Below, piece by piece: positions 1 through 46,440 of a stretch of DNA of 52,211 nt. Under the pieces are notes generated by a model. It had not been told where the DNA came from. It searched no databases and saw only the letters and a program-made list of their open reading frames with translations. Origin of the DNA: Chiloscyllium plagiosum (taxonomy: Eukaryota). The stretch spans positions 41,422,718 through 41,474,928 of the forward strand of contig NC_057740.1 of the NCBI RefSeq assembly GCF_004010195.1, given 5' to 3'. Position 1 is the first letter of the stretch. Each line of letters begins with the position of its first letter. Both the position numbers and the translations under genes were made by a program.

Positions 1-263
1 GATGAAGGAAACGTCCACATGCCCGAAATGTTGATTCTCCTGCTTCTCGGATGCTGCCTGACTTGCTGTGCTTTTCCAGCACCACACTCTCAACTCTGAT
101 CTCCAGCATCTGCAGCCCTCACTTTCTCCTTTGAGATATGAAGAGAGATGGTAGATTTAAGGTAAGGGGCAGGAGGTTTAGACAGGATGTGAGGAAAAGC
201 GTTTTCAGTTAGAGGGTGGGAATCGGGAACTCACTCCCTCATCACATTTAAGAAATATTTTGA

Positions 264-911
264 TGTTCTTATGGACTAGATCAGACCACTCAAAAGATTC
301 TTAAGCAGACAGCCCTAGACCTAACTCTGCAATTTATTTCAGTAAGTGTACAGTGAAAATTACCAAGAGTAAGATAGCTAGGTTGACTGCTAGATTTTAA
401 ATCAGACAAAAATTTATTCACAAAGTCACACAATGAAACACAAAGAACAAAGAACCCCTACAGAACTCAACCTATCCAGCTAGATGTAATTATGCTGTTC
501 CGAATATACACAACAGTCCCAATAAGCAAACTCCTTTTAAAATCCAGTATAAATGGAACACATGCTTACAGGTTGAAGTTGAAAGGCAGAAAGGAGAGAG
601 AGTTTCCACACAGCTCCCTGCTGAACTTCCCTGTTGAACTCAACTAAAAACAACTCAGCTTAGCTCAGCTAGAGAGCTGACCACTCCCTTCTCTTTATAC
701 AGATCACTTCTGAAGCATGACTACTTTGGCCTGAAGTCTCATGTGTTTACATATAAAGAAAAGGCCTCTCAAAATCCTTTTTCATCTCTGTACCAAACCA
801 GACTGATCGGATACCGGCCCGGTTTATTGCTCCTCTGAAAAAAAAATCAAGGACAGAATCCCCTTGAGCCAAGGAACAGCTTTTAGGAAAGAAGGGACTA
901 ACTTTGTGACA
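264..911. mobile_element. Possible solo LTR inserted in a CR1 3' end
   Basis: About 650 bp bounded by TGT...ACA that interrupts CR1 sequence (atattttgatgt / atgtacacttgtg); minus-strand TATA-like and AATAAA strings. Confidence 0.4.
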
Positions 912-1432
912 ATGTACACTTGTGATACCAAGGCTCCAGGCTAGGTGCAGGAAAATAGAATAATCAGGTGGTTGCTTTTGACCAGTGTAGACCTGATGGG
1001 CTAAATGGATTTTTCTTTGTGCTGTAAGTCTCTATGACTCTATGTGTCTATGACTTGCATTTATATAGCACAACATTGTAACATCTCAAAGCATTTTCAC
1101 TGAATGAAGCATTTGTCACGTGTAGCTGCTGTTGTAATATGGGAAATGCAGCTGCCAGGAGCAACACAGCAAGATTCCACAAACAGCAATATGATAATAA
1201 CCAAACAAACTGTGTTAGTGATGCTGGTTGAGGGCTCAATGTTGGCCCTGAAACACCAATAAACGAAACAAGTTAAATGAGTGTGTGGCGCAGATTGAAA
1301 TTGGTGGGTACGATGTTATGGGTATCTCAGAAACTGCAAGGGGATCAGGACTGGGAGCTAAATATCCAAGGATATACATCCTATTGAAAGCTCAGGCAGA
1401 TGGACAAAAGGGACAAGGTTACCTAGTTTGTA

Positions 1433-1725
1433 AGATACCCGGGTTCAATTCCCGCCTCAGGCAACTCTCTGTGTGGAGTTTGCACATTCTCCCCGTGTCT
1501 GCGTGGGTTTCCTCCGGGTGCTCCGGTTTCCTCCCACAACCCAAAAAATGTGCAGGTTAGGTGAATTGGCCAGTCTAAATTGCCCGTAGTGTTAGGTGAA
1601 GGGGTAAATGTAGGGGAATGGGTCTGGGTAGGTTGCGCTTTGGTGGGTCGGTGTGGACTTGTTGGGCTGAAGGGCCTGTTTCCAAACTGTAAGTAATCTA
1701 ATCTAATCTAATCTAATCTAATCTA
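1433..1725 (+). mobile_element. HE1-like V-SINE, 5' truncated, (TCTAA)n tail
   Basis: B-box ggttcaattcc, V-domain gtgtggagtttgcacattctccccgtgtctgcgtgggtttcc, CR1-like tail. Confidence 0.85.
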
Positions 1726-1738
1726 AAGTGATATACAG

Positions 1739-1874
1739 CCCTTCTTCAGAAGAAGGTCTTATGCCGGAAACATTGATTCTCCTGCTGCTCTTCGAATGCT
1801 GCCTGGCCTGCTGTGTTTTTCCAGCACACATTTTTCAACTCTGGTACTCCAGCATCTGCAGTCCTCACTTTCTC
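1739..1874 (+). mobile_element. Short Penelope-derived insert with decayed hammerhead
   Basis: Flanked by direct repeat ctaaagtgatatacag (1723-1738, 1875-1890). Confidence 0.75.
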
Positions 1875-2700
1875 CTAAAGTGATATACAGTCAGGTGGCA
1901 TAGAATCTGTATGGGGAGAGTTGAGGAACTGCAAAGGAGAAAAGACCCTGATGAGATTTCTGTACAGGCCTCCTCGCAGTCGTCAGGATGTTGGAAAGAA
2001 AATAAATCAGGAAATAGAAAAAGGCATGTAAGAAATGCGCTATTACAATAATCATGGGGGACTTCAATATGCAGGTGGGCTGGGAAAATCAGACTTGTCA
2101 GGGATCCCAAGAAAAGGAATTTGTGGAATGTCTACATGATTTTTTTGGGAGTAGCTTGTGGTAGAGCCCACTGAGGAACAGCCACTCTGGATTTGGTGAT
2201 GTTTAATGAGGAAGACTTGATTAAGGAGCTAATGGTCTGTAAGAGTCTACAATATGATAGAACTCACCCCGCAGTTTGAGAGGGGGAAGCTGAAACAGAT
2301 GTCACAGTATCACAACTGAGTAACAGTAACTAGAAAGACATGAGGGAGGAGCTGGCCAGAGTTGATTGGAAGGGAAGCCTAGCAGGAAAACAGTGGACCA
2401 ACAATAACAGGAGGCTGCAAAATAAGATAAGAGCCCATGGTGTTAGGGGCAAGGTACTGACGTAGATAGAGGATTGGCTGACTGGTAAAAGGATGACAGT
2501 AGGGAAAAAAGGGGCCTTTTTCAGGATTGCAGTCAATGACTAGGGGAGTTCTGGAGTGGTCAGTGTTGGAACTACAACTATTCACATTAGGTATTAATTT
2601 TCTCCATGAAGGAGCTGAGCACACTGTTGCTAAGTTTGCACGAAGATAGGTGGAGGGACAGGTTGTGTTGAGGAAGCAGGGAGGCTGCAAAATGACTTGG

Positions 2701-2927
2701 CAGAAGTGGGTACTGCAGATGCTGGAGATTAGAGTCAAGATTAGAGTGGTGCTGGAAAAGCACAACAGGTCAGGCAGCATCCGAAGAACAGGAAAATCGA
2801 TGTTTCGGGCAAAGGTCCTTCATCTGGAATGAGGCCTGATGAACAGCTTTTGCCCGAAACATCGATTTTCCTGCTCTTTGGATGCTGCCTGACCTGTTGT
2901 GCTTTTCTAGCACCACTCTAATCTAGA
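2701..2927. mobile_element. Fold-back Penelope-derived insert with two opposed hammerhead cores, nested in a CR1 remnant
   Basis: Inverted arms of about 85 bp (2740-2826 and 2836-2922); flanking repeat ctgcaaaa(t/g)gacttgg. Confidence 0.8.
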
Positions 2928-4567: not shown

Positions 4568-4677
4568 TCGAGAGTGTGGTGCTGGAAAAGCACAGTAGGT
4601 CAGGCAGCATCCAAGGAACAGGAGAATTGATGTTTCGGGCATAAACCCGCCATCAGGATTTCAGCAACTCAGGATCC
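4568..4677 (-). mobile_element. Short Penelope-derived insert
   Basis: Flanked by agagttgcaacattg (4553-4567, 4678-4692); minus-strand CUGAUGG...GCCCGAAACAUC variant core. Confidence 0.72.
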
Positions 4678-5189: not shown

Positions 5190-5560
5190 TGCTCTGGGAG
5201 TGTTTGATGGGGACAGCATGGAGGTAAAAGGGCAGAGAGAGCATTACCTTTAGTTTAAAAGAGTAGTGAGAGATTTTCTCTTTATCTAACCCCGTACAGT
5301 CCCTATCTTGGGAGGGTTTGATGGGGACAGTGTAGAGAGAGCTTAACTTTCAGGTTAAATGAGTGCAGGGAACTTTACTCTGTATCTAACTTTGTGTTGT
5401 ATCTGTCCTGGGACTGTTTCATAGAGACAGTGTCGATGAATTTTTACCTTCAGTTTATTATTAATTTAAAAGAATACAGGAAGTTTTACTCTGTATCTAA
5501 CCCTATGCTGTCCCTATCATGGGAGTGTTTGGCAGGGACAGTGCAGAGGGAGCCTTACTT
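5190..5560. repeat. Dispersed satellite-like repeat, unit about 67 bp (ggacagtgtagagggagctttactctgtatctaaccccgtgctgtccctgtcctgggagtgtttgatgg); also 18045-18370, 32765-33055, 50858-51015
   Basis: Degenerate tandem units at several places in both orientations. Confidence 0.8.
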
Positions 5561-5767: not shown

Positions 5768-5933
5768 GGGGGAGAACGTGAGGACTGCAGGTACTGGAGA
5801 TCAGAGTTGAGAGTGTGGTGCTAGAAAAGCACAGCATCCAAGGAGCAGGAGAGTCGACATTTCAAGCATAAGTTCGTCATCAGGAATGTTCCTCAGATGC
5901 TGTGCTTTACCAGCACCACACCTTTTTACTATG
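5768..5933 (-). mobile_element. Short partly fold-back Penelope-derived insert
   Basis: Flanked by atccatattaa (5757-5767, 5934-5944); decayed CUGAUGA...GAAA on minus. Confidence 0.72.
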
Positions 5934-6107: not shown

Positions 6108-6261
6108 AGGTAAAAACAATGACTGCAGATGCTGGAAACCAGATTCTGGATTAGTCGTGCTGGAAGAGCACAGCAGCTCAGGCAGCATCCAAGGACAGGC
6201 AAAATCTGAGGACAGGCAAAATCGACGTTTCGGGCAAAAGCCCTTCATCAGGAATAAAAAA
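6108..6261 (-). mobile_element. Short Penelope-derived insert with intact hammerhead
   Basis: Perfect 15-bp flanking repeat ggtgtaatctctatg (6093-6107, 6262-6276). Confidence 0.8.
6220..6255 (-). ncRNA. Minimal hammerhead ribozyme inside a short Penelope-derived insert, core intact
   Basis: Minus strand reads AUUC-CUGAUGA-A-GGGC(UUUU)GCCC-GAAA-C-GUC-GAUU; stem I is short with one U.U mismatch. Confidence 0.7.
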
Positions 6262-8409
6262 GGTGTAATCTCTATGGCAACCCCTCTATCAGAGTCTCCT
6301 TGCCAAGCAATTAGCACTCTCCTATCATTTAGTATAAATGTTATTTTCTCTTTATTTGGTATTCTTGTGAATTGTCCTGGTGAGTGAGAGATAAAAAGAT
6401 TTGACAACATGTTTTTTATCAGGAATATTCTGTATCGTTCTGTGCCATCAAATAGCCATATTAAGGTATTGATCATACCCATGAAAAACAACAAGTTGAA
6501 ATTCTTCCAAGTTAATCATTCCTAGTCCAAACAGCCTGCTTGTATTTACCACACAGTAATCACTCAGTACTAGCAGGGAAAGAGAGTTGACCTTTCAAAA
6601 CCTCCCCTCCCTTCCTTGTTGGCTTTTTACTAATAACAGTTTGTGTGACATGCGTTGGAAGTAAATTGTGGAAAACTGTTCCTCTCTCCTTTCGGATTTG
6701 GAGGAGGCCAGGCCGCTGCCATTTGATTAAGATCATGTCTGATTTGTGTCTTAACTTTCTCTACTTTAGATCCCAAACCTTTAACAGCTTTTCCTAACAG
6801 ATTCTTTTTCATTCATTCTTTTGATCAGCCATCACTGACGAAGCCAACATTTATTGGCCAGCCCTAACTGAGAAAGTGGGAGAGAACTGCTTCTTGGACC
6901 ATGACATTTGAGGGGTGTAGAGACACACACAATGATGTTAAAGGAAGGAATTCCAGGATTTCGATCCAGCGATACCGAAGGAACAATGATATATTTCCAA
7001 GTCAGATCGGTGAGTGAGTCAGAGGAAAATATTCAGAGTGTTTCCTGAATTTGCTGCCCTCATCCTTCTAGATGGTAGCAGTTTCAGGTTTTGAAGGTGT
7101 TGTCTTTGGTGAGTTGCTGTAGTGCATCTTGTAGTCAGAATACGCTGCTGTAACTGTGCGTCGGTGGTGGAGAGACTGAATGTTGAATGCATTAAATGCG
7201 ATATCAATAATCAGGCTGCTTTGTCTTGGATGATGTCAAGCTTCTCAAGTGTTGTTGGACCTGCACCCATCCAGGCAAGTGGAGAGTATTCCACCACACT
7301 CCTGACTTGAGTCTAGTAGATAGTGGACAGGCTTTGGGGAGTCAGGAGGGGAGTTGCTCACTGCAGGATTCTCAGCCTCTGACCTGCTCTTGTAGCCAGA
7401 AGATTGACATTGGTGATGCCCAGGAAGATGATGAGTTCACCTCTATGGGGAGGTATAGGTGTAGTGATAATACCACCAAGCTTGTAATTCTAATGATACC
7501 AAAACAGAAATTGCTGGAAAATCTCAGCAGCTCTGGCAGCATCCGTGGAGAGAAATCAAGGTCAATTCTCTGAGGAAGGGTCACTGGACCTGAAACATTC
7601 ACTCTGATTTCTCTCCACGGATGCTGCCAGAGCTGCTGAGATTTTCCAGCAATTTCTGTTTTGGTATCATTAGAATTACAAGCTTGGTGGTATTATCACT
7701 ACAGAGTGAATGTTTCAGGTCCAGTGACCCTTCCTCAGAGAATTGACCTTGATTTCTCTCCACAGATGCTGTCAGACCTGCTGAATTTCTCCAACAATTT
7801 ATGTTTTTGTTTCTGATTTACAGCAGCTGCAGTTCTTTTGGAATACTAGTGTGCTGTAATAATATAGGTTTAAATCCCAATTTAGCAGCTGGTGGAATTG
7901 AAATTGAGTTAATCATTCTGGAATAATGACCACATTATTCCAATTGATTGTTGGAAAATCTCATGTGGCTCCTCAATAATCTTTAGGGAAGGAAATCTGC
8001 CGTCCTTACCTGGTCTGGCCGACACATAACTCCAGACACACAGCAATGTGGCTGACTCTTAACCACCCTCAGAAATAGCTGAGCAAGTGCTGCCCTCAAC
8101 AGCAACACCCACACCACATGAAAGATTAAAGGCAAGAGTGCATGGTGCCAGGAACTATGCATGATCCTTGAAAGAGGACTGTGTCCCTGAGGGAGATACC
8201 AGCCAGCTGTGAGATTGAGACCTTACCTAGTATCAGCCCACAGTTAGTGAAAGAGATACACTGACAGAAATGGTATTGCTATAACCCAAAACCTAACCAC
8301 CACTACCTCCCCTGAGGGAATGCAAAACTAAAACAACAAACAGTTTGCAGCAAGGGAATGCAAGCCCAGTTTAAGTAAACTGTCCTCATTATTTAATGCT
8401 TTCAGTCCA

Positions 8410-9350: not shown

Positions 9351-9377
9351 ATCTCTCTTTTTTTTGTCCTTATAAAG

Positions 9378-12152: not shown

Positions 12153-12337
12153 GGAAAACCCAAGAGAACTGCGGGATGCTGAAAATCAGAAACAAAAACA
12201 GAAATTGCTGGAAAAGCTCAGCAGGTCTGGCAGCATCAGTAGTGAGAAATCAGAGTTAATGTTTCAGGTCCAGTGACCCTTCCTCAGAACAGGGCTGCCA
12301 GATCTGCTGAGCTTTTCCAGCAATTTCTGTTTTTACA
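12153..12337. mobile_element. Fold-back Penelope-derived insert, second subfamily (CUGAGGA-AGGGUC-ACUG-GACCU-GAAA)
   Basis: Flanked by tcagctgaaatga (12140-12152, 12338-12350); stem I GUU/AAC on minus; inverted arms. Confidence 0.75.
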
Positions 12338-15309
12338 TCAGCTGAAATGAATCTTCTTTGTTCTGCATTTTCTCAAATTAGATTTTATCCCTCGTGTACT
12401 ATGAACATCACTCTTTAAACTCCTAAATATTACCTCACAAAGAAATGAACTGCAGTAAATTACCATGCCAGTCAAAGAGAACACAGCGTTACACACTTCA
12501 ACCGACACTGAGGGAGCTCATGAGTTTAAAAAGTTTTTACAAGTTAATAATATTTTCCTACCGTCTGGATTCCAATTGTTTGAAGAGTTTACTGATAACA
12601 CACCGTTTTCTCTTGAGAATGAGAATTATTAAATGTTCTCTCTTTCCCAGCTTCTACCTTCTCTGTGACTCATGCTGAAACTTCAGCGAGCAAGTCAGTG
12701 CTTGGTCTGAGTTTGTGGCTCACCAGCTTTCTAAGTGAGAACAACCCGCCCCCAGAGCCTCACAAATCTGAATGTGTGCACCGATGTAATCCCATTCCAT
12801 GGAAAGTGCTTGATAATTACACAGTATCAGCAACATCAGGTTAACTCTTTCTGAGTCACACTCTGCAAAATGTCATTAACTAGAAGGGCAGGGGAAAATA
12901 TTCTAGACGGGTTTATCAGCTGGAATTTACTTTTGCTTTTTGCTGATCAAGACTAACAGCAGCAGACCCTAGCTCCTCAGTGCACACCCCCTCGCAGCAA
13001 GGAAGGGTAAACTAATTTTTCACTAAATGGATGTATGTGTTGGGTCAAGGAACAACGATAAATTTCCAAGTCAGGATGGTGAGTGACTTGGAGGGGAGTG
13101 GTATTCCCATACGTCTGCTCCTCTTGTCCTTCTACATGGAAGAGGTCATAAACAAAATCAGAAATTGCTGGAAAAGCTCAGCAGGTCAGGCAGCATCTGT
13201 GGAGAGAAAGCAGAGTTAATATTTTAGGTCCAGTGACCCTTTCTCAGTACAGTCACGGGTTTGGAGAGTGATAACTTCCTGAGAGGGTAAATGTTGGAGG
13301 CTGTTTCCCCTTGTGGGAGAGTCTGCGTCCAGATGGCATCACCTCATGAACAAGGAGTCACCTGGTTAGACACAGATGAGGAGAAATCTCCCTCTCAAAG
13401 GGAAGTGAATCTGTTTAATTCTTTACCACAGAGGGTTTCGAGGCTGGGTCATTGAGTATATTCAAGGCTGAGATGGACAGATTTTTAAGCAGTAAGGGGG
13501 GGATCAAGGATTATGGGGAAAAGGCAGGAAAGTGGAGTTGAGGATGATCAGATCAGCTATGATCTCATTGAATGATGGAGCTGACTCGATGGGCTGAATG
13601 GCCTAATTCTGCCCTAAATTTAATTGAGAATCTTTAAAGATATCACGCTGAACAGAACCCACAAGGAGTATTAGGAACAGATAAGAATGTCTTACCAGAA
13701 TTGCTTGTGTCCCATGAGCAAATAAAGAAAAGAGTTTAGTTGAGTATGGTGTTGCTGCACCTTTGGAAATTCATGTTCCTAAAATGGAAGTAAGAAAGGA
13801 AAGGAAAACTTGAATTTATATGGTACCTATTACTGCATCAGAATGTCCAGTGCCTGACAGCCAATCAAGACCTCTCAGAAGTGTATTCCTTGTTGTCATC
13901 CAGAAAAATGCATCAACTAGTTGGTGCACAGCAAGATCCCACAAATAGCATTGTGTGTAAATGGCCTGATGGTCTGTTTTCATTGGTGTGGGTTGGGGAG
14001 ATATTCCTTTGCCTCCCAACTCCCTGTACATCAGGAAGAACTCACTGTTCCTCTTCAAAATGAGTGGCATGATGGCTCAGTGGTTAACACTGCTACCTCA
14101 CAGCTCCAGGGGTTGGGTTCAGTTCCACCCTTCAACAACTATCTGAGTGGAGTGGAGTTTGCACATTCTCCTCTGTCTGCACGGGTTACCTTTGGGTTTC
14201 GGTTTCCTCCCACAGTCCAAAACTGTGCAGGTTAGGTGGATTAGCCATTGGGAAATGCAGAATGAGATTTTGTCAGGAGTTCACGATTCTGAAATTGTAC
14301 CTCTCTTTTTTCTCTCTGCAGAACTTGCCTGACCTACTGGGTATTTTCAACGGAGTGTTTTTATTATAGGAGACCACAGAAACCGAGTTAAACAGATTGA
14401 TTTCTATCAGAATGTTTATATATCAAGAGTCTTGGTACAAAATGCGTCTCAAGCTGTTATATATTTCAGATGTTTAAAGACAGTTTAATCCACCCTCTGA
14501 CAACTCCATCGACTCTCTTAGATTCCTTAAGTGCTGTTATGGACCTGCTCCAGACTGTCTGCTTGTCCCTGAATCAGCTCCGTCCGCTAGTTACGATGCA
14601 GAAAGAATAACAAGACTCCCTTGTGGATTAAAGCTTTCACAACTTAAAGAGAGGAAATGGAAAACTGGCAGAGGATCACACATCAACCAGCTGTACTCCC
14701 TGAAACCCTCACTGTTCGTACATACTCCATCAAGTCCAAAATTTACTTTGTCGCTTACTTTGCAGTGTGTTGTCCCAATGCATCAGCAAGGTGTGGTGGA
14801 CCAACTGGGTCATAGGGAAGGATGAGAGGGAGGGATTGCAGGATACAGGGAGATTGTAGGCAATTGAGTGGGGCTGAGGGAGATGAGGAGAGTGTGGGTT
14901 GGATTGAGAGATACAAAGAGATGTGTGTGAGGGTGGGATTGAGAGATACAAAGAGATGTGTGTGAGGGTGGGATTGAGTGATGTGGGGAGTTTGAGGGTG
15001 AATGGGTGAGTGATATTGAGTGATGTGGTGCAGGGTGGAATGCGGGTGAGATTGGAGGATTTGAGTGAGTGGGGAGTGTGCTTCATTTTGAAAGTGAATG
15101 ATGGTCACAGTACTACACAATGTCGTCAGGTTGTGAATAGCACTCAATAACTGCAAGTTTTTCTTTCGGTTTTTCGAGGCATTTGGTATTTTACATTAAA
15201 GAGTGGAAATGAAGTCAATGGCTGAGTGCAAATATCTGACCACAGCTTCACCACTTCCTCTCCAATTAGAATTTCAAAGTCAACAACTGATTAAATCTTA
15301 TGTTTTTTT

Positions 15310-20151: not shown

Positions 20152-20775
20152 AACATGTCCAGAAACCCTAGCTCAGCAACGTGGTAGCCCACAAACCCAC
20201 CAACATACTAAAACTGCAGCTAATGAACTTGAAAGACCCTATACAGACAATGAGCAAAACTAATGTAATTTACAAAATACCGTGCCAGAACTGTTACAAA
20301 CACTACATTGGACAAACAGGCAGAAAACTAGCCACCAGGATACATGAACATCAACTAGCCACAAAATGGCATGACCCTCTCTCACTAGTATCCTCACATA
20401 CGGATGAGAAAGGGCACCACTTTGACTGGGACAACACATCCATCCCAGGACAAGCCAAACAGAGACATGCACGAGAATTCCTAGAAGCATAACATTCCAA
20501 CCAGAACTCAATCAACAAACACATTGAGTTAGACCCCATCTATCACCCCCTGAGAAAAACAGGATATGACATCACCACAGGAAATGACAACACCAACCCA
20601 AAGAAACCCAAACATATAAATAGAAAACAGGAATCTTGTGCAGTGCTTCGCCGGAGGCCCACTGAAGATGTTACCTAGTAGGTGACGAAACGTCTGGAAA
20701 TGAACCTTCCAGCTCAGCGATCAAACCCACATCCAAAACCTCAACCTGAGCTACAAATCTTCTCAAAACTCGCTA
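20152..20775 (+). mobile_element. Penelope-like element 3' fragment: GIY-YIG endonuclease plus 3' terminal repeat region
   Basis: ORF 20181-20492 contains NVIYKIPCQNCYKHYIGQTGRKLATRIHEH, the PLE-type GIY-YIG motif with CxxC. An in-frame stop follows, then a hammerhead motif. Confidence 0.9.
20659..20697 (+). ncRNA. Minimal type I hammerhead ribozyme (Penelope-associated), core intact
   Basis: CCA-CUGAAGA-U-GUUACC(UAGUA)GGUGAC-GAAA-C-GUC-UGG: stem I CCA/UGG, 6-bp stem II, palindromic ACGU as stem III, GUC cleavage triplet at 20692-20694. Confidence 0.8.
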
Positions 20776-23705: not shown

Positions 23706-24226
23706 GGAGGAGAAAGTGAGGTCTGCAGATGCTGGAGATCAGAGCTGAAAATGTGTTGCTGGAAAAGCGCAGCAGGTCAGGCAGCATCCAGGGAACAGGA
23801 GAATCGACATTTCGGGCATAAGCTCTTCTTCAGGAATGAGGAAAGTTTGTCCAGCAGGCTAAGATAAAAGGTAGGGAGGAGGGACTTGGGGGAGGGGCGT
23901 CGGAAATGTGATAGGTGGAAAGAGGTCAAGGTGAGGGTGATAGGTCAGACTGGGGTGGGGGCGGAGAGGTCGGGAAGAAGCTTGCAGGTTAGGAAGGCGG
24001 TGCTGAATTCTTGCTACTTGCGGAGCGTTTCAGAGAACACCTCTGGGACACCGGGACCGACCAACCTAACCACCCCGTGGCTCAACATTTCAACTCCCCC
24101 TCCCACTCTGCCAAGGATATGCAGGTCTTTGGACTCCTCCATCGCCAGACCACAACAAAACGACGGTTGGAGGAAGAGCGCCTCATCTTCCGCCTAGGAA
24201 CCCTCCAACCACAAGGGATGAACTCG
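23706..24226. mobile_element. Penelope-like element with inverted 5' part (3' end on minus, GIY-YIG C-terminus on plus)
   Basis: 24011-24225 translates LAERFREH...PVAQHFNSPSHS..DMQVFGL...RRLEEERLIFRLGTLQPQGMN. 23706-24009 is the reverse complement of the 3' terminal segment, with a decayed hammerhead near 23805-23836. Confidence 0.8.
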
Positions 24227-25377: not shown

Positions 25378-27539
25378 CTGAAAGACAAAACGGGCAAGAA
25401 ACAAAAAAAAAAGCCACTTGCATTTATATAGCACCTACAGACTGAAACATACTTTGCGGACACCAACATGTTTTGCTCAGAGAGTGGTCACTGGCACAAT
25501 GCAGCAATGTGTACAAAATATGTTCCCACAAACAACAACGAGATTATGGTCCTTTAGCAACACTGGTTGATGGAGACGTATTGATCAGTATTGATATTGA
25601 TCAATGTTGATCAGGACAGAAGGAAGAGGTTCCTGCTCCATTTTGATGGAGTGCAGTTGGACCAGTCACATCCAGCTGAGACAGCAGATGGACTTCAGTT
25701 TAACATCTCATCTAAAAGATGGTATCTCTGACAGGGCTGCACCCCCTGGGTACTGTACTTGGCATCAGGCCTGGATTCGATGCTCAATGTCACGTGTTAT
25801 CGCACAAGCTCTGGCTCCAGGGGAGATACGGACCTCAATGGCGAGACAAAGCTGAGATTGTGTCAAACCTTTCACAGGGACTCCTGGAAGCCGGCGTCTC
25901 TGGGAGGCACACGGTACACCATTACCAGCTGGGATGGTGCTACAGGGCACTGGGGTTAGCCAGCTGCTGTGGTGCCACCTCTGCAGTCCCCACACCTTCG
26001 GAAGTAAACTTAAGGAAATGCACCTTTCCAGAGGCAGCTAATAAAAAGATTCCACCGGGAATAGTGTGGAAATTCACCAACTGGGCCTCAAACCACCACC
26101 CCCACCCTTGAACTAAACTGAATAAATTGCTCACCACCAGTAATGGGATCTTGCTGTGCATCATGACAAATGGGTATCACATTTAGTGGAATGTTCTCGA
26201 CTGCACACAAAACATAAGTGGGCCGTTCAGCCCATCCATTGCATGCTGGTTCCACAACAGCCACCTCCTAGACCCTCTCTCCATGATCTCCTTCCATTCC
26301 CCTCTCCCTCAGGCAGTTGGTCTTGTTTCCTCTTAAGATGTATCGATACTCAATCGCTCCCTGAGAAGCGAGTTCTACATGCTCCCCATTCCCCGATTAA
26401 AACAGTTTCTCCTGAGTGAATTCCTGTATGTGTGCATGGCGGTCTTAATATCATGACCCCATCATTTGGAACTTTTGTGCAGGTGAGCCCAATACCAGCT
26501 AACAATTAGCAAAAACAATGTTATTACTAATTGTCTTCAAACACACACAGGCATTCATACCCTGAAAGTTTGCAATACTCCTTCTCACTTCCTGTTTTTC
26601 CAATCAAATGGCTGGCATCTTTTCCCAAGGGGGGTGGATTTCAAGACTAGGGGGCATATGTTTAAGGTGAGAGGAGAGAGATTTAAAAAGGATATGAAAG
26701 GTAACTTTTATTTCAAAACACAGAGTGGTTCGTGTTTGGAATGAACTTCCAGAGGAAGTGGTGGATCCGGGTACAGTTACAATATTTAAAAAGTCTAAGA
26801 AAGGTTTGGAGGGATATGGGCCAAACGCAGGCTGGTGGGACTCGTTTAGTTTGGGATTATGGTCAGCACGGACTGGTAGGACCAAAGGGTCTGTTTCCAA
26901 GCTGTATGGCTCTAAACATCACAGCCTTCTGGCTTTCACAACTTTATTTGCATTTACAAAATATTTTCAAACACATCCCCAAAGGTACTGTGTCACTCTC
27001 AGAAGGGTCGGCACTGTGTGAACACAGTTAGTAAGATAATTGGCAAATAAAAAAACATTTTTTTGGTGGGGGAGGGGGGGGGCGGGTGGAGTAAGACGAT
27101 CGTAGTTTCTGTTTCTGCAATCAGATGTTGTGACCTGGAATCCCATAACTGAAAGGACAGTGTGTCAATACAGGAAGTAATTAAGGTTCAAAGGGGAATG
27201 GGATCTCAACTAAAGGAAACTACCAAGGTATGAGGGGGGTTAAATAAAACAAAGAACTGCAGGTGCTGGAGGTCTGAAATACACACAAAAACAAAACTGC
27301 TGCAGACATTCAGAGTCTGACAGCATCTGTGGAGAGAAAACAAGAATTTACATTTCGAAGGCAGTGACCATTCTACAGAACAGCTCTCTCCATGCAGCTA
27401 CCCCTGCTGAGTTTCCCCAGCAATTTCTTGTGTGTTTAAGGTTGAGGGCTGAGACAGGCTGGGCAACTCCATTAAATACAATGGCAGTGGGTAGGTCATG
27501 ATTAATATTTAAAGAACAAATGCATGCTTTGCAGCAGTT

Positions 27540-30165
27540 AGACATACTTTCTCGGTTAAAGGTCAGACCAGAAAAGGTGGCCCCTAACCATGGCTATCAC
27601 AACAAATGAAGGATAAAGTTAGGCTCAAAGAGGGGATCATACAAAGTTGCTGGAAAAAATAGCAAGCCTGAGGAACGGCAGAGTTTAGAATTCAGCAAAG
27701 GAAGGTAAAGAGATTGATTAAAAGGGAAAAATGAATTCAGAGTGTGAACTTCGAAGAAAGACAAGAACAGACTACAAGGCCTCAAGTAAAATAAACAAAT
27801 TCGTGTTCATCAAATGTGTAAAAACTGAAGAATTGATCATGGAAAAGAACTAAATAATTACTTTAGCTTGGTCTCCACAGAAGAAAGCAAATAATTTCAT
27901 GAAATGCTAGGAAAGCAAAGGCCTATTAGGGAGGATAATTTGAAGGAAATTATCAGTTAAAAAAATAGTGATGGAGAAATCACTGGGCCTGAAAGTTGAG
28001 AAATTCCCAAGGCCCGCTAATCTACGAGCCAGAGTAGGAAGGAATAGCAACAGAAACTTGGATCCATTGGTTGGCATCTTCCAAAACTCTCTAGTTTTTC
28101 TGGAACAGCTCCATGAGATTGGAGGTTGCAGATGTAATGCCAGTATTTAAAAGGAGGGATGGAGAAAATCAGTTAACCTAACAGAAAACCGCTGGACCAT
28201 AGGTCATTGTAGCAGACATAGGCCATTCAGCCCATCCAGGCTGCTCTGCCATCTAGTGAGATCATGGCTCATCTGATAACGCTCAACTCCACTTTCTTGT
28301 GTTTTCCCCATCCTGATTAAAAGTCTGTCTTAGCCTTGAATATACCTATTGATCCAACCTTAACAGCCCTCTGTGGTAAAGAATTCCACAGATTCACTTC
28401 CCCACGAGTATTGTAAAGAATTTGAAAACAGAATGTTTAGAACATACCAACAGGATGACACAAAGTCAACACGGATTTCCAAAATTTTTTTGTTTTGAGG
28501 ACATAGCTAGATGAGGGAAAACAGTGCACATGGTGTATTTAGATTTTCAGAAAGCTTTTGACAAAGTCCCATATCTGGGGTTACTGAAAGAAATTAAAGC
28601 ACATGGGACTGAGGGTAATATCATGGAATTGGTTAGCAGAGAGGAATTAATGGGTCATTTTGAGAATGGAAGACCATGAGGAATGGGGCACGACAGAGAT
28701 CAGTGCTTGGGACCCCAGCTGTTCATACTTAAAATCTTAGAATCCCTATAATGTGGAAACAGGCCCTTCAGCCCAACAAGTTCACACTGACCCTCCAAAC
28801 CCATTCCTCATTACTCTACATTTGCCCCTGACCACTGCACCTAACCTGCACCATCCCTGAACACTGTGGGCAATTTAGCATGGCCAATTCACCTAACCTG
28901 CACAGCTTTGGACTGTGGGAGGAAACCGGAACACCCAGTGGAAATGTATCTGAACAATTTGGGCAAGGGAATCAAATGTAATATTTCCAAGACTACACAA
29001 AACCAGGTGGGGCCAAGAGAGGTAAAGAAGCTTCAAAGAGTCTTCAGGTCAATTTAGACAAGTAGAAAGAGTGAGCAAATGTGTGGTAGATGCAGCATAA
29101 TGTTGATAAATATGAAGTTGTCCACTTTGGTAGGAAAAGCAGAATGGGAGAAATGTGCCTAAATAGTCAAAGTCAGACGACACCAGGTTATAGCCCAACA
29201 GGTTTATTGGAAATCATAAGCTTTCGGAGCGCTGCTCCTTCGTCCAGTGGATTCTAACCTGGTGCTGTGAGACTCTTGACTTTGTCCAGCCCAGTCCAAC
29301 ACTGGCATCTCCACAGCATGGCTAATACAGCACAGAAACAGACCCTTTGGTCTGACAGTCCATGCCAAAGATAATCCCAAACTAAACTATTCCCATCTGC
29401 CTGCTCCTGGCCCATATCCCACCAAACCTTTCCAATTCAGGACAGATTAGGAAAGCGCTGATTTACAAATGGACCCGATTGCTTTCAGTGACTGGTTTAC
29501 AAGGACAAAGATGTAGGTGTAGCACAATGTCAGGAAGGCAAAATGGAATGGTGGCCTTCACTGAAGGAGGATTGAGCACAGGAGCGAGGATGTCTAACTG
29601 GAGCTGTAAGGGGTCCTGGAGTATTGTGTGCAGTTTGATTAGATTAGATTACATTACAGTGTGGAAACAGGCCCTTCGGCCCAACAAGTCCACACCGACC
29701 CGCCGAAGCGTAACCCACCCATACCCCTACATTGACCCCTTACCTAACACTATGGGCAATTTAGCATGGCCAATTCACCTGAGCTGCACATCTTTGGACT
29801 GTGGGAGAAAACCGGAGCACCCGGAGGAAACCCACGCAGACACGGGGAGAACGTGCAAACTCCACACAGTCAGTCGCCTGGGGCGGGAATTGAACCCGGT
29901 CTCTGGCGCTGTGAGGCAGCAGTGCTAACCACTGTGCCACCGTGCTGCCCTCAACTGCTGTATCTCCTTAATCAAGGAAAGATATATTTTCCACAAAGGA
30001 AATGCAGTGAAGATTCACCAGACTATTCCTGGAATGGTAGAATTGTCATAGAAGGGTCCACTTGGCCTGTGGTCATTGGAGTTTAGAAAAATGAGAGGGA
30101 TCTCATTGAAGCATGAAATTCTGACAGAGCTGGACAGACTGGATGCAGGGTGTATATTTCTCCTG
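27540..30165 (+). mobile_element. Old CR1 LINE remnant fragmented by several nested SINE and Penelope-derived inserts
   Basis: Scattered CR1 ORF2 motifs, e.g. gtgtatttagattttcagaaagcttttgacaaagtccca (VYLDFQKAFDKVP) near 28530. Confidence 0.7.
29637..29950 (-). mobile_element. HE1-like V-SINE, full length
   Basis: Very similar to the 18851-19176 copy. Confidence 0.88.
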
Positions 30166-31091
30166 GGACAAAGTGAGGACTGCAGATGCTGGAGATCAGA
30201 GTTGAAGAATGTCATGCTGGAAAAGCTAGGCTGGTCAGGCAGCATCCGAGGAGCAGGAGAGGTCGACGTTTCAAACATAAGCTCTTTAATAGGAATGGGG
30301 GGTGTGTGGCCAAGGGGACGGAGAGATAAATGGGAGGAGGGTGGGGCTGGAAGAAAGATAGCTGGGAATGCGATAGGCAGATGAAGATTGGGGGTAATTG
30401 TGATAGGTTGGACTGGAGGGTGGAGCGGATAGGTGGGAAGGTAGATGAACAGGTAGGACAATTCAACAGGGCGGTGTCGAGTTGGAGGTTTGGATCTGGG
30501 ATGAGATGGAGGGGAGGGGAGATCAGGAGACTGGTGAAATTGAAATTGATCCCATGTAGTTGGAAGATCCCAAGGTGGAAGATGAGACGTTCTTCCTCCA
30601 GGCGTCGGGTGGTAGGGGAGGGGCGATAGGGGAGGCCCAGGCCCTTAGCGGAGTGGGAGGGGGAGTTAAGTGTTCAGTCACAGGGCGGTGGGGTTGGTTA
30701 GTGTGTGTCCCCCAGAGATGTTCCCTGAAACATTCCGCAAGTTGGCGTCCTGTCTTCCCAGTGTAGAGGAGACCACATTGAGAGCAAAGGACACAGCAGA
30801 TGAGGTGTTTGGATATGCAGGAAAATCTCTGTCAGATGTGGAAGGATCCTTTGGGGCCTTGGATAGAGGTGGGTGTACCTTTTACCCCTCTCTACACTTC
30901 TCAAGGGAAGGTGGTGGGAGGGGAGGGGAGGGTGGGTTGGTGAGGGGCATGGATCTAATCAGGTAGTCACGGAGGGAATGGTCTCTGCGGAATGCGGATA
31001 GGTGGTGGGGCCTGACCGTAGGTGGCAGAATTGGAAGAGGAAGATGTATTGTATCTGGAGATTGGTGGGGTGGAAGGTGAGGACTGGAGGG
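30166..31091 (-). mobile_element. Degraded Penelope-like element (RT C-terminus, GIY-YIG, 3' terminus), running into the gap
   Basis: Frameshifted minus-strand peptides PPVLTFHPTNLQIQ and C..CGLLY.G.T.RQLAE.FREHL; shares the 3' terminal segment seen in the short inserts. Confidence 0.8.
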
Positions 31092-35099: not shown

Positions 35100-35140
35100 A
35101 ATCCATCACCAGACTTTAGCTCCGCGCAGTAAGTACCTAC

Positions 35141-37354: not shown

Positions 37355-37407
37355 TACATCAAGGACAATTAGCTCTCAGACATCCTGAGCAACAGACAAA
37401 TGTTTGC

Positions 37408-37670: not shown

Positions 37671-39128
37671 GAAAACAAAGATACTGAAGATTTGAAACAA
37701 AAACAAGAATTTCTGGAGAAACTCAGCAGGTCTGGCAGTATCTACAAAGAGAGAAACAGAGTTAACATTTCAAGTCCAGTCCCACTTCTTCACACGAGAT
37801 TACAGTTGATGTGGTTATGCTATGTTCAACTTTAATCAAAAGCAGGTTGGAATTGAAGCAACTGACCTGTCTTCCAACTGTAGTAAAGAATTGGTCAGTC
37901 TGACTCGGGCCACAATCAATGCTGAACCGTGTAGGGAACTGTAAATCTCCAGCCAAATTATCTTGGTCAGGAGGTGTATGCAGGTACTAAGGAGGGTCAG
38001 GGACAGTCAAACTGCTCATGTAGCTGCAGTTCTCTTGGGAAAAGTCAATCACATGAAGGATTGTAAACTAATCAGTCAAATCCAAAACGTGTTGGAACTG
38101 AGAGGTTAAGATAACTCAAGGGTAACAACCGAACCCTAAACTAACTACAGCTTGTGCAGAGTACGAGGCTTTTCCTACGCTTTCTCAATAAAGGTGTGCT
38201 TCTGATAAGTTGTGGGGCCTGCATGTATTTTGGGCGAGAGCCAAGGTTACATTACAGAGTGTTTTAAATTGGAAGAGCCAATAAAGGTGTCGTGTCATTG
38301 AGATTACTTTAGACACTTCACATCAAGGCATCAGGAAGTTTATTTTAATAAATAAGATGTTTGTGGTGGAGCAAAACCGATGCCTGAGATTTTTCTTCTC
38401 AATAAAATCCTCAAGCCCAAGCACTAACGTGAGGAGACTGAACAGTGGCTGTTTATGTTAATGGTTCATGTTAATGGTATCAGTGGAGTGGTGCACACAA
38501 GGTCCATGACGAGTGGGTGCTGTAAGGTTTGGACTGGGTGTTGGCAGCCCTGGAATAACATTCTAATTTAGTTTGATAAGTTTTCTTTACAATTTGCTTT
38601 CAAGTTAAACCTTTTTAATTTATCCCCACAGTAGTGTCCCCATCAGTACTGTACCCCAGTGGTTATACACTGACAGACCTGACCCCACCAGTGGTTATAC
38701 ACTGGCAGACCTGTCAGGCTTATGCCCGAAACGTCGATTCTCCTGCTCCTCGGATGCTGCCTGGCCTGCTGTGTTTTTCCAGCACCACACTTTTCAACTC
38801 TTGTCTCCAGCATCTGCAGTCCTCACTTTCTCCTAGTTATACACTGACAGACTTGTCCCCACCAGTACTGTCCCTAGTGTTATAGTGACAGACCTGTCCC
38901 CACCAGTACTGTACCCCAGTGTTATACAGTGACAGACCTGTCCCACTGTTACTGTATGCTCTACAGCGCAGTGTCATGCTGCCTTGCAGGTTAATGAGTT
39001 GTCAGATACAGATTGAATGGGGACAGGAGAAAGGTTTCACACACCTATAACCCTGAGTATAGGAAGAGGGTAGAGAGAATTGGTTGGAGGTAGGTCGTTT
39101 TGGGCGCAGCGATGTTAGTTACACATAC

Positions 39129-39628: not shown

Positions 39629-40273
39629 GGTGGAGGTACCGGTTTTGGACTGGGATGGTCAAAATTAACAATCACACAACACCGGGTTATAGTCCAACTG
39701 GTTTATTTGGAAGTACCAACTTTCTGAGCGCTGCTCCTTCATCAGGGAGCTAGTAAAATAGGATCACAGGACACAGAATTTATAGAAAAAGATCATAGTA
39801 TCATAAACTGATGCAATATATTGAACAAACCTAGATTGCTGTTAAGTGGCAGTCAATATTTTTTATAAGCCATATGACATTTTACAAACTCATACTTTGT
39901 AAAGAGAATCAGTCTGACTCAAGATTGGAACACATATGGACTCTAACTGCACACTTTTAATACATTGTTGGAGCTGAGATGTCACTTTTTTTAAACAAAC
40001 CTTAAGTTATCTGGGGAATGTGACTTGAAAGTAGTTCTGGGATTTACATATTAATGAACCGCAACCTAAAACCCATTCTTACGGATGAATGATTGAACAG
40101 CAATCAAGATTTGTGTAATATATTGCATCAGTGTCTGACACGATGATCTTTTGCTATAAATTCTGTGTCCTACGATCCTGCTCTGCGAGCGACCTGACAA
40201 TGGAGCAGCAGTCCGAAAGCTTATACTGCTAAGTAGACCTGTTGGACAGTAACCTGGTGTTGTATGATTTTAA
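39629..40273. mobile_element. Penelope-derived element with long inverted arms, third hammerhead subfamily, in MPV17L2 intron
   Basis: Arms about 39668-39845 and 40094-40272, each with CUGA.(G/A)A..GGAGC-AGC-..CC-GAAAG; flanked by gtgatacagtga (39617-39628, 40274-40285). A shorter relative is at about 29165-29325. Confidence 0.7.
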
Positions 40274-40800: not shown

Positions 40801-41095
40801 CATTGGAGAGAAATCAAGTTAACCTCTCGGCTTCAGTGACCCTTCATCAGAACAGAGAGTATCACTGGCTCCGGACTGTAACTCTGATCGCTCTCCACAG
40901 ATGCTGCCAGACCTACTGATATTTTCTGTTTTGGTTTCTGATTTCCAGCAGTTCTTTCAGTTTTTATCTTGAAGAGGAGTGTCGGTCCCTGCGCAGATAT
41001 TTCACTCTCGTCAGTATCTTCAGTAGCGACCGCACTTCAGGGCAACACCACTGGGAGGCGCTGAACTGGTGGAAGGCGCTACCTAAATGCATTAC

Positions 41096-42455: not shown

Positions 42456-43883
42456 CGTTCTACCGTCAATGTCCTGTTTTACTTAGATTAATATTCAATT
42501 AGAATAGGAGGGGTTACCCTGTAATAATCTTTTAAAGTCACAGGCACCTCCTGGAATAAGTTATTGAAAAGTTATATTTTACTGATTGATTACTGACTGC
42601 TTTTTGTTCGAGAAGAATGTAATCAATCCCTAGGGTCAGTCATGATCTGACTGATTGGCAGAACAGGCTCGAGGGGCCGAACAGGGCTTTTGCCCAAAAT
42701 GTCGATTTTCCTGCTCCTCGGATGCTGCCTGACCTGCTGTGCTTTTCCAGCATCACTCTAATCTAGACTCTGGTTTCCAGGATCTGCAGTCCTCACTTAT
42801 GCCTCGAGAGAGCGAACAGCCTACTCCCACTCCTGTTTCTTCTGGCTTTATGGGATACTGTAGCAGAGGGGATTTAGAGGAGATAGCTGGAGCATACAAC
42901 CATGGAACTGTGTGGAAGGAAGCCATTCAGTCAATTGTGCCTATACTGGCTCATTAAAGAGCATCATTACCTCGTGCCAATCATCTGCCTTTCCCCCGGA
43001 CCCTTGCATCTTATTTTTATCCAAATAACCATCCAATGCCCTCATGAATACCTCCATTGAACCTGCTTCTGCCACATTTCCAGGCAATGCCTTCCACATT
43101 TCATTCTGATGAAGAGTCACTGGACTGAAAAAGTTTAGCTCTGCTTTCTTCCTACAGATGCTGCCGGAAGTGCAGAGTTTCCCCAGACATTCCTGTTTCA
43201 TAGCTCAAATAGAACCATCAGCGTAACACTTGTAGGAAAGGAAAGATTAGCCTTCATTGTCCCAGGTACTTGAATGAATGCAGTGAAAAATTCGTAATAT
43301 CGCCTCTCCGTGCCACCTCAGGTACAATGGTACCTAGGTACAGATACTTTATGTCTTGTCACAGAGTTGAAATAGTCAAAAGAAAGGCTTGCATGGGAAT
43401 ACAGAGTATAAAAGTCCAGAATATGATTAAAGAGTGTCTGTAAAGTACTCAATTTATAATCTTTCAGAACATGAGGCTAAGCTGCCTCCATCCGGACTCA
43501 CTCTGGGCTCCAGCCCAAGACTCGGCCCACTCTCATCCTGCTCCCCACTCCCGGACTCAGCTGGGGTGGGGAGAAAAACTGCAGCAAAGAGGGGAAACAA
43601 AAGCGAAAAGGAATTGGCAAGCAGAGGAGCTCCGACTGGAGCATCTTAATGTGCCGCCATCTTGAACAGTTAGAATCTGCCATATCTGCCTGGTCTGGCC
43701 TACATGGAAAACTACAGGTCACTGTTGAAAAATAAAGGGACTGCCCATTTAAGGTGAGGAACTCTTATAAAGGATTGTGGCTAAAGAGAATTTAAAATCA
43801 TTTACATCCCTAACCAGGTGCACCGACTTCTTTCCACAGTCCAAAGATGTTTAGGTTAGGTGGATTGGCCATGGGAAATACAG

Positions 43884-44020
43884 AGGTAAAAACAATGACC
43901 GCAGATGCTGGAAACCAGATTCTGGTTTAGTGGTGCTGGAAGAGCACAGCAGTTCAGGCAGCATCCAACGAGCAGCGAAATCTCTGGATCAGTGGCTCTT
44001 CCAGCACCACTGATCCAGAA
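43884..44020. mobile_element. Fold-back Penelope-derived insert splitting a V-SINE
   Basis: Flanked by catgggaaatacag (43870-43883, 44021-44034). Confidence 0.75.
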
Positions 44021-44599
44021 CATGGGAAATACAGGGTTATAGGGATAGGCTGGGCATATCTTTGGTGTGGACTCGATGGGCCGAATGGCCTTCTTCCACA
44101 CTGTAAGGATTCTGTGATCCTGTGGTTCAATGAACTGAGGAAACTAAAAAAGAGGGGAGCTGGCCGACACTTCCTCACCGGATTGTATCAAATGCTGCAG
44201 CCTGAAGGATTTATAGCTGCACTTTGTTTTCCTTCCATTTAACTCCAAGGGATTCTGCAATGTAATTGCTGCCACCATGTGGCTGCTTATTGGTAGGGCA
44301 GCAGGATCCCATAAAAGACAATCAGGGAGAGGTCCATTAATCAGTGATGGTAAGTGAGCAGGAAACGTTGGCCCTGCACAGGATGGACTTGACTCTATGA
44401 CTCTAAGTAGGACTGTGGGATAGGTTACACCCACCTGAAAGAGCAGGAAGGAGCTGGTGTTTAGTACCCCACCACAGTTGGGACAGTGTGGCACTGCCTC
44501 AGTGCTGCACTCAGTGGGTCTGCCTTCATTTTCTGCTTAAGTCTCTGGAGTGGCTCTTGAACCTGCCTTCTTCAAACTAAGAGTGAAATGCTCCCCACC

Positions 44600-46440
44600 A
44601 ACCACAGCTGCCCGGTCAGACAAACAGACCTAGGACATTCGGCCTCTCGACATTAATCTGCCACTCATTAAGGTCATAGCTGATCTTCCACATTCCCATC
44701 CACTGCCAATAACCTCATTCCTTGCCTATCCAGAATCTATCTACCTCTGCTTCAGCAACACTGAATGGCCCGAGCTCCACTGTGTTCTAAGACAGAGAGT
44801 TCCAAAGTCATACAACCCATCTGAGAGAAAAAATATCTTTCTCATCTCTGTCCGAAAAGGATGACCTGAACTTTTAAATAGATCTGGACAGACCCACATG
44901 AGGAAAAGTCATTTCCACATCCACCTTGCAAGGCCATTCAGGATCTTACACACTCTAATCAAGTCTAAGTCTAACCCTAACCCTAACCCTAACCCTTATT
45001 CTCATAAACCTCAGTGGAAACAAGCCTGGTCAGTCCAAGCTTGCCTCGTAAGACAACAGATTCATTCCAGGTATCAATCAAGTAAATCTCCTCTGAACCA
45101 CCAACAATGTATTTACACATCGCCTTATTGCAGGAGGCCAGAACTGCACACAGTATTTGAGATGCGTGTCACCAATATCGTGTATAACTGAAGCCTAACC
45201 TTCTCTATTGTACGTTCAATTCCTTTCATGAGAAATTAGAGTATTCTTCTCGAGTACTTGCTGTGCCTATATTCTATATCATTGTCACCCCTGCACTAGA
45301 ACACCCAGAGCCCTCTGCCTCTTGAAATTCTCTGTTTAAGTAATACTCTTTAAAACGTTCTTCCTGCCCAAGGTAAACAACTTTGCATTTTCCCACTACT
45401 GGCATTTTTTTTATCCATTCCCACAACCTACCTATATTTGTCTGCAGCATTCTTATGCCTTCTTCCCCACATACTTTCCTACTTATCTTGGTGTTGTCTA
45501 TGCTTTTAGCCTCCATGCCTTCACTCCCCACATTGATATAAATCGTAAGAAGTAGCTGCCCCAACACAGAAGCCTGTGCGATTTCATTTGTCACACCCTG
45601 CCAATGAGAAACAGACCTCTGAATTCCAGCAGCTAGCCAACTTTCAATCGATGTTAATATGTTACCCTTTACACCATGAGCTTAAACTTTGCACAATTAG
45701 ATTATATGTGGAACCTTGTCAAATGCCTTCTGGTAATGCGAATCAGTACATCGAAAGGTTACCCTTTATCCACAACGCATGTTACACCATCAAAGAATTC
45801 CAACAGACTCTAATAAATGCATTCATTTCATTCACACATCTCATTCCTGATGAAGGGCTTTTGCCTGAAACATCGATCTTCCTGCTCCTCGGATGCTGCC
45901 TGACCTGTTGTGCTTTTCCAGCACCATTTTAATCTTGACTCTAATCTCCAGCATCTGCAGTACTCACTTTCACCTAGTCTAATAAATGCATGTTGGCTCA
46001 GTGGTTAGCACTGCTATCTCAAAGCACCACTGATCCGTGTTCAATTCCAGCCTCCGGTGATTGTCTGCGTGGAGTTTGCACATTCTCCCTGTGTCTGTGT
46101 GGGTTGCTCTGGTTTCCTCCCCCAGTCCCAAGATGTGTAGGTTAGATGAATTGGTCTTGCTAAATCATAGTGAGTGAGTGTGTAATGGGATGATACTTTT
46201 GGAAGGTCAGTGCAGACCCAATGGGCCAAATGGCCTCTCCCTGCACTGTAGGGATTCTAAATTGGTGAAACATGACTTCCCTTCAACAAAACCATGCTTA
46301 CTCTTCCCAAATACTGTGTGTTTATCCAAGTGCTCAGCTATAACCTCTTTAATGATTAATTCTAACACCATCCCCATGACAGGTGTCAGGCTAATGAACC
46401 TATTCTTTCTTTTCATCTGCCTGCCTCCCTTCTTGAATAG
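44600..46440 (-). mobile_element. Old CR1 LINE remnant with nested inserts
   Basis: SVLGQLLLTIYIN and SKHGFVEGKSCFTNL peptides on minus. Confidence 0.72.
45823..45977 (+). mobile_element. Short Penelope-derived insert with near-intact hammerhead (CpG-decayed stem III)
   Basis: Flanked by tctaataaatgcat (45809-45822, 45978-45991); CUGAUGA-A-GGGC-UUUU-GCCU-GAAA-CAUC. Confidence 0.78.

Follow-up and report, generated by a model that had tools for sequence, protein, structure and literature searches.

The DNA considered here is a window of 52,211 nucleotides from the shark Chiloscyllium plagiosum (contig NC_057740.1, positions 41,422,718 to 41,474,928), a repeat-rich stretch with two assembly gaps. 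It holds 24 insertions derived from Penelope-like elements (PLEs), most of them short and associated with a minimal hammerhead ribozyme motif. The insertions are genuine and Penelope-derived. We read them, with a probability of about 0.55, as solo copies of the pseudo-long terminal repeat (pLTR) of endonuclease-bearing PLEs, made as run-off cDNAs of fixed length. The evidence comes from this window, from its protein relatives and from published papers.

As a catalogue entry the finding is largely ordinary; its useful part is mechanistic and comes from the sharply defined ends of the inserts. Dispersed PLE minimal hammerheads have already been published for fish, coelacanth, frog and reptiles, and thousands of dispersed single motifs with truncated PLEs were described in other vertebrates (PMC4209133). 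A pLTR origin has been given for retrozymes, one chondrichthyan included (bioRxiv 10.64898/2026.07.22.740005), and a PLE expansion in a carpet shark, in introns of the whale shark, has been reported (10.1101/443036). The literature searched, from which subscription papers, Dfam/Repbase and several supplements were excepted, gave no account of these shark families or of a pile-up of 5' ends at the hammerhead; some of the supplements may already list shark families or show such pile-ups.

Inventory and ends of the insertions

Profile hidden Markov models seeded from window copies were used to find inserts across the 52-kb window. They assign 12 of the 24 insertions to a family A, nine to B, two to C and one to D, and they pick up a weak extra PLE fragment near 19200. 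The insertions total about 5.7 kb, or 11.3% of the non-N bases, at a density of about one per 2.1 kb. All 17 inserts listed in a preliminary description of this DNA were matched (17/17), and family D (20161-20775), which has an intact motif, is a fourth family absent from that description. The inserts had also been called short, which is right for most of them and wrong for family C at 39629-40273, a 640-bp unit whose sequence continues for about 100 nt or more beyond the hammerhead on the upstream side. Downstream of the hammerhead, families A and B share homology; the profiles detect no relationship of C or D to either. The short copies carry pLTR sequence only, with no sequence that is unique to them.

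The 5' ends of the inserts were placed relative to C3, a position of the hammerhead core. The count has 24 entries, with the copy at the window edge omitted; ends of short copies were derived from the alignment, and for the four long copies the upstream end was fixed separately. Fourteen of the 24 ends lie between -8 and +3 of C3, a span of 12 nt where the hammerhead begins, so that the 5' boundaries are discrete rather than random. Another four ends lie far upstream and six at +8 to +60. Nearly all copies (22/24) begin upstream of the predicted cleavage site; in 18 of these the start is no further downstream than +3, and the insert at 43884 is the only one that begins at the site itself.

The 3' ends are orderly too: each of families A, B and C has two classes of them, separated by 29-42 nt, and this offset is the PLE "tail". 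Nine inserts are two-armed, with the arms head to head, and one arm is tailed and the other tail-less in all seven that can be read directly. The rule extends to 8/8 if the insert at 7497 is read through a secondary duplication, while the one at 40805 is not assessable; if the arms were independent, the pattern would have a probability of at most 0.008. An inverted copy with a one-sided tail is the standard PLE layout (PMC8557442; PMC3846280), which is set out in a curation guide (PMC8969392), and target-site duplications (TSDs) and solo pLTRs are published PLE traits (PMC8557442; PMC3846280).

The eight flanking direct repeats of 11-16 bp seen in the preliminary description hold up, with a score of at least 11 at 1739, 2701, 4568, 5768, 6108, 12153, 43884 and 45823. 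Ten of the 23 inserts tested reach this score, as against 3% of 400 random position pairs; the other two, 38715 and 20161, sit in repetitive flanks. The 640-bp family C unit has a 12/12 repeat when it is tested as a whole, and none when it is tested as two halves.

The hammerhead motif and its decay

A common layout runs through all families: CUGANGA, one extra base, stem II, GAAA, a self-complementary pair and UH. Stem II is 4, 5, 5 and 6 bp long in the four families, and the three stem II types of the preliminary description are present as given there. The family majority sequences fit the minimal type I hammerhead defined for PLE terminal repeats (PMC4209133) in the core (CUGANGA and GAAA-NN-UH), the extra base after A9, the G10.1-C11.1 pair and stem II; helix I gives 2-3 contiguous pairs at best, short of the usual 4-5 bp. 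The published PLE motifs share the core, the extra base before stem II and G10.1-C11.1, and also a palindromic 15.2-16.2 without a loop, the presence of several families in one genome and an occurrence mostly as dispersed single copies (about 4,000 in coelacanth and 9,000 in Xenopus). The Schistosoma motif differs, with 7-8 bp in stem II and 4-5 bp in stem I against 4-6 and 2-3 bp here. In the available parts of that work, the ends of single copies are not mapped and sharks are not among the named hosts.

Individual copies depart from the family sequences to varying degrees. The claim that most inserts retain the core stands for 13 of the 17 listed ones, which have at most two mismatches in 11 core positions (none in 6/17). 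It does not stand for 1-130, 38715 and 42680, where the CUGANGA half is missing, nor for 43884, where the whole motif is missing. A strict descriptor is passed by two sites in the window (6251 on the minus strand and 20662 on the plus strand), only the former in a listed insert (6108, one of 17), and by none in 20 shuffles. Allowing one core mismatch added no site in the window, and the shuffles then gave 0.75 per run. A relaxed scan for the exact core gave 12 matches against 1.3 by chance, 3/12 of which lie outside the families or off the family hammerhead position. An Rfam scan of the window at E up to 1 gave no match to a hammerhead family; five weak microRNA matches from Rfam were rejected as products of the inverted arms. 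A covariance model built from nine family A copies matches family B with E 9e-5 at 12252 and, weakly, with E 0.07 at 7563/7703. No copy of C or D is picked up by it at E up to 10, and it thus does not show a likeness across all families.

The inserted ribozyme copies are mostly fossils. In 13 aligned family A segments, substitutions occupy 6/103 cells in the core and 62/963 elsewhere (Fisher p 1.0), and 16/60 and 33/91 at CpG sites. No purifying selection on the core is seen in these segments, and the equal rates of core and remainder indicate that the copies decay neutrally. The palindromic stem III can self-pair as ACGU in A and D and as AGCU in C, and its CpG is broken in 5/9 A and 4/7 B copies. 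Among the five copies folded, stem II has a pairing probability of 0.76-1.0 in 5/5, and stem I as a monomer at most 0.025.

The structural covariation suspected in the preliminary description is not seen inside the families. When these are taken one by one, the shuffles attain the observed pairing in 410/500 and 433/500 cases and the covariation score in 262/500 and 403/500; the pairing is higher than in slid registers, which is to be expected when a structure has been read from a consensus. Paired differences are seen only between the four lineages, which were aligned by structure and are too few for a statistical test: B is A plus one U-A pair, and C swaps the stem III pair. In published cleavage assays, single minimal motifs gave no cleavage and dimers gave low cleavage (PMC4209133), cleavage in Anolis was assisted by protein (PMC11167929), and 1/9 Xenopus dimers was cleaved (bioRxiv 10.64898/2026.07.22.740005).

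Parent elements and the making of short copies

Family A is the 3' end of two longer elements with a GIY-YIG endonuclease, as the preliminary description had recognised. In both, a pyrimidine-rich 3' untranslated region (UTR) and a GIY-YIG frame precede the repeat. The element at 23708..24225 has its pLTR and 3' UTR on the minus strand (23708-24010, C3 23833) and the C-terminus of the upstream GIY-YIG on the plus strand (24014-24225), the endonuclease piece standing in the opposite orientation to the rest of the element, from which a short deletion separates it. The other, at 30166..31091 on the minus strand, contains a frameshifted, Neptune-like reverse transcriptase (RT) thumb, linker and GIY-YIG, followed by the 3' UTR and the pLTR (C3 30292), and runs into an assembly gap. 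A protein search with its single frameshifted frame (30526-30831) gave no match, while a two-fragment profile of the element recovered relatives. The only family D insertion, 20161..20775 on the plus strand, is a 5'-truncated, Penelope/Poseidon-like element with a GIY-YIG frame at 20172-20489 and, behind it, a pLTR with an intact minimal hammerhead (C3 20662).

Among named proteins, the best relatives of these retrotransposon frames belong to Stegostoma tigrinum, Chiloscyllium punctatum and Hemiscyllium ocellatum. Those closest to family A are Chiloscyllium punctatum proteins with an RT, a CX4CxxC linker and a GIY-YIG domain (63% identity over GIY-YIG), and the family D GIY-YIG is 84-87% identical to Stegostoma tigrinum proteins. 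The RT is seen in relatives of A and D and, in the window itself, as the thumb remnant at 30166 only. The linker occurs in 53/85 scorable relatives of family A and in 0/15 of family D, and a CX2-5CxxC linker marks the Neptune and Nematis clades (PMC8557442). From this pattern in the relatives, family A appears Neptune-like and family D, whose scorable relatives have no Zn linker, Penelope/Poseidon-like. The linker of the window's own family A copy is degraded and unreadable. In a separate observation, the C-terminus of the Stegostoma gene model P0001 matches the family D translation up to the start of stem II, so that the related element of that shark likewise carries its repeat immediately after the frame of the endonuclease.

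Little is understood of how PLEs replicate, and the process has been reconstituted for a single element. According to the reading that we favour, transcription of the autonomous element would begin a few bases before its hammerhead, and the cluster of 5' ends would mark this start. The RT-GIY-YIG protein would nick host DNA with a stagger of 11-16 nt, and reverse transcription would be initiated internally on the RNA, at either of two sites that lie about 90 and about 125 nt past C3. Priming on the 5' copy of the repeat would then allow copying only to the 5' end of the RNA and give an insert of 95-135 bp; if both nicked strands were primed, one per site, the product would be a head-to-head insert with a tail on one arm. 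The templates, presumably mRNAs of autonomous elements, would be mostly uncleaved. The ribozyme would belong to the parent as a weak motif that depends on a dimer or on protein, with the inserted copies dead and decaying neutrally. Fixed-length run-off from an autonomous transcript accounts for the discrete ends and needs no separate family. The TSDs, tail and inverted arm support the mobilisation by PLE RT/GIY-YIG that the preliminary description proposed, and its Penelope origin and minimal type I hammerhead architecture are supported as well.

Several of these steps have a counterpart in the reconstituted PLE. There, reverse transcription starts at two internal positions on the RNA, in agreement with the 30-40 bp tail, extension takes place on both DNA strands, the length of the product is set by the 5' end of the RNA, and uncleaved RNA is the main substrate (PMC11167929). 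Priming took place at +111-118 and required RNA to +172, about 55 nt past the start sites (PMC11167929); a solo copy, which would have no such downstream RNA, would thus be a dead end. PAc of Anolis resembles families A-C in having its hammerhead about 115-130 nt before the 3' end and a tail of 30-40 nt; its open reading frame (ORF) starts inside the hammerhead (PMC11167929). An internal promoter is known in Penelope (PMC2377424).

A number of points weigh against fixed-length run-off from autonomous elements. The transcript start is not observed, and no full-length element lies within the window: three of the four longer copies are short of full length and one enters a gap. Families B and C are without a coding partner in the window, and the N-termini of six long relatives, compared with the window, gave no match to the repeats and thus no sign in A-C of the repeat-ORF junction of Anolis. 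Two of the three family A subtypes occur here as short copies only. In a tree of 13 family A segments the long copies are nested, with weak support, among short subtype-1 copies, and a constraint that makes the short copies monophyletic is not rejected (AU p 0.43). The sample is small, and in decayed copies the 5' end can be placed only to within several bases. It is also worth pointing out that rotifer pLTRs alone have mobilised sequence in trans (PMC3846280) and that non-autonomous PLEs exist in Chlamydomonas (PMC8557442).

These last two reports bear directly on another explanation, in which the short inserts form dedicated non-autonomous families: solo copies of 130 nt with their own promoter and RT start sites, re-mobilised in trans. 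Such a route has been proposed for retrozymes (bioRxiv 10.64898/2026.07.22.740005). Discrete 5' and 3' ends are fitted equally well by this explanation, and it gains from the split of the A subtypes, supported at 94 and 100, and from nine B insertions without a long copy. Against it, the short copies have nothing of their own, the diagnostic sites of subtype 1 are common to the long elements and five short copies, C and D run past the 5' boundary, and the reconstituted PLE required RNA beyond the 3' end of the repeat. We hold this explanation to be possible but rather unlikely, and the same goes for its most far-reaching form, in which subtypes 2 and 3 of A and family B would be parasites of shark Neptune elements that propagate themselves as units of 130 nt. 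In that case they would be the shortest PLE-dependent elements, combining transcript start, hammerhead and two RT start sites, and both target strands would be primed at those two sites on insertion.

Solo pLTRs could also be left behind when direct repeats recombine within full-length insertions, the TSD and the inverted arm remaining in place. A suitable layout, inverted pLTR-pLTR-ORF-pLTR with a TSD, has been published (PMC3846280), and its collapse yields the two-armed form seen here. About 20 former full-length insertions would be required, however, and none is visible among the four longer copies; the repeats are also merely about 130 bp. We consider this origin improbable.

We give a similarly low chance to plain 5' truncation of long elements in which the hammerhead is a preferred place for RT arrest or for the forming of junctions, a version of the extreme 5' truncation that the preliminary description had left as an option. 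PLE insertions are typically 5'-truncated (PMC8557442), single minimal hammerheads have been read in this way (PMC4209133), and the six ends at +8 to +60 and the variable ends of the second arms would suit it. The clustering of the other ends does not: under truncation at a constant hazard, 14 ends in 12 nt were reached in 0/400,000 runs at the fitted mean (p <1e-5), and at the most favourable mean tried the cluster has p 0.018. The ends moreover lie past stem II, which is the only stable hairpin and would already have been copied; stem I hardly pairs.

Non-LTR retrozymes, in which ribozyme-cut monomers circularise and undergo rolling-circle reverse transcription, share with these inserts a non-coding, pLTR-related unit, a type I hammerhead and long TSDs (PMC7229834; bioRxiv 10.64898/2026.07.22.740005), here longer than 4 bp. 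They are defined by at least two consecutive head-to-tail units with complete hammerheads, and dispersed monomers are counted as retrozymes as well (bioRxiv 10.64898/2026.07.22.740005). Although tandem retrozymes are known in one chondrichthyan (same source) and 43884 begins exactly at the cleavage site, it is most improbable that the present inserts arose in this way, and the label "retrozyme-like" in the preliminary description does not fit them: the window has no head-to-tail arrays save a partial repeat at its edge, the arms are head to head, the units are not permuted at the cleavage site, the motif is minimal rather than canonical, and the unit is 95-135 nt as against the 170-400 nt of the expressed circles (PMC7229834; bioRxiv 10.64898/2026.07.22.740005).

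If the 5' pile-up and the one-tail rule hold genome-wide, shark genomes would be a large in vivo record of PLE insertion. Such a record would indicate that the templates are uncleaved, place the transcript start and show that both target strands prime at two fixed sites, and it would help to test for any role of the PLE hammerhead in transposition. Were the short copies non-autonomous parasites instead, the tens of thousands of copies expected in the genome would show, to the single base and in vivo, where PLE transcripts start and where the two priming sites lie.

Individual insertions and other features of the window

Family A solo pLTRs with a tail lie on the plus strand at 1739..1876 (C3 1747; 16-bp TSD, 1723-1738/1875-1890), at 38712..38834 (5' end in stem II at +10; the copy sits within a 41-44 bp tandem repeat), at 42679..42804 (5' end at +8) and at 45823..45977 (C3 45847, 5' end at -7; 14-bp TSD), and on the minus strand at 6108..6261, a copy of the third subtype with a 15-bp TSD and an intact minimal hammerhead (C3 6251, predicted cleavage after 6224). 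The insert at 45823 carries a 16-nt filler; at 45823-45839 the word TCATT from the 5' end of the element is repeated, like reiterative copying at the end of a template. The tail-less solo copy at 4568..4677 on the minus strand (C3 4656; 15-bp TSD) has about 19 nt of filler, partly copied from the target, and at 4659-4677 this filler holds an inverted 7-mer of the target site. At 1..130 on the plus strand, a tailed family A copy is truncated by the window edge, and the upstream half of its hammerhead is disrupted. It opens (1-35) with a hammerhead-like piece that is without stem II and stops at the cleavage triplet; 3 nt further on, a second copy begins in loop II. This pair is the only hint of a head-to-tail arrangement.

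The head-to-head inserts of family A are found at 2701..2927 (16-bp TSD with one mismatch), with a tailed minus arm (C3 2826, 5' end at -8) and a tail-less plus arm (C3 2836); at 5768..5933 (11-bp TSD), with a tailed minus arm (C3 5883) and a short, tail-less plus arm; and at 43884..44020 (14-bp TSD), which is without a hammerhead. In this last insert the tailed minus arm begins at +29, the base after the predicted cleavage site, and the plus arm is again short and tail-less. An initiator-like TCATTC stands just before C3 in 3/8 of the family A copies inspected and is not seen in family B; the motif is a lead and nothing more.

Family B has head-to-head inserts at 12153..12337 (13-bp TSD), with a tailed minus arm (C3 12287, 5' end at -5) and a short, tail-less plus arm; at 27250..27440, built the same way (minus arm C3 27378); at 40804..40963, with a tailed plus arm and a minus arm that carries the hammerhead (C3 40850) and is shortened beside a tandem array; and at 7494..7840, with a tail-less minus arm and a tailed plus arm. 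A perfect inverted duplication (7460-7770, 95/95 identical) overlies the last of these and takes in 34 nt of flank. It apparently arose via template switching at the element's own inverted arms, and is either a very recent event or an assembly artefact. Tail-less solo copies of B lie at 13143..13253 on the minus strand (C3 13247) and 43104..43199 on the plus strand (C3 43106), and a tailed one, absent from the earlier list, at 37671..37798 on the minus strand. On the plus strand, a tailed copy at 21070..21170 has its 5' end inside the hammerhead, and a degenerate copy at 14275..14365 has a hammerhead that is unrecognisable. Both family C insertions are head to head: 29166..29312 has its hammerhead on the tail-less minus arm and a tail on the plus arm, and the unit at 39629..40273 (12-bp TSD) has a tailed minus arm (C3 39745) and a tail-less plus arm (C3 40194), both extending upstream.

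The tailed 3' ends of A and B (e.g., 38820-38836) are pyrimidine-rich and often followed by AG, like a 3' splice site, and the element at 23706 has a second acceptor-like stretch about 25 nt upstream of C3. Introns near the hammerhead are known in PLEs (PMC4209133).

Two stretches of the window look like host coding sequence. A probable exon of an Mpv17/PMP22-family gene lies at 39118-39306 on the minus strand (atlas lead 0.84; family on 32% of cluster members), so that several inserts may be intronic; we presume the gene to be MPV17L2. A long coiled-coil coding exon at 48395-49100 on the plus strand received no family from Pfam or the atlas, and may resemble PLVAP.

Other repeats are plentiful. 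About 11 copies of a SINE-like (short interspersed element) repeat of about 300 bp with (TAATC)n tails occur in the window, at 1433-1722, 17128-17416, 18850-19185, 22717-23036, 29634-29954, 34790-35103 and other places; we take it to be the elasmobranch HE1 SINE. ARAGORN found 0 tRNA genes. Two long, related 3' fragments resembling a long interspersed element (LINE), at 8412-9350 and 33089-34311, lie in opposite orientation and are accompanied by many shorter ones; they are presumably of the CR1 type. Dispersed minisatellites form families of 41-44 bp (38635-38956, 39545-39627, 40284-40800), about 70 bp (5195-5560, 32765-33058, 50840-51019) and 37 bp (51261-51797). The PLE insertions at 38715 and 39629 sit inside the 44-bp minisatellite family, and the one at 40805 abuts the same family.

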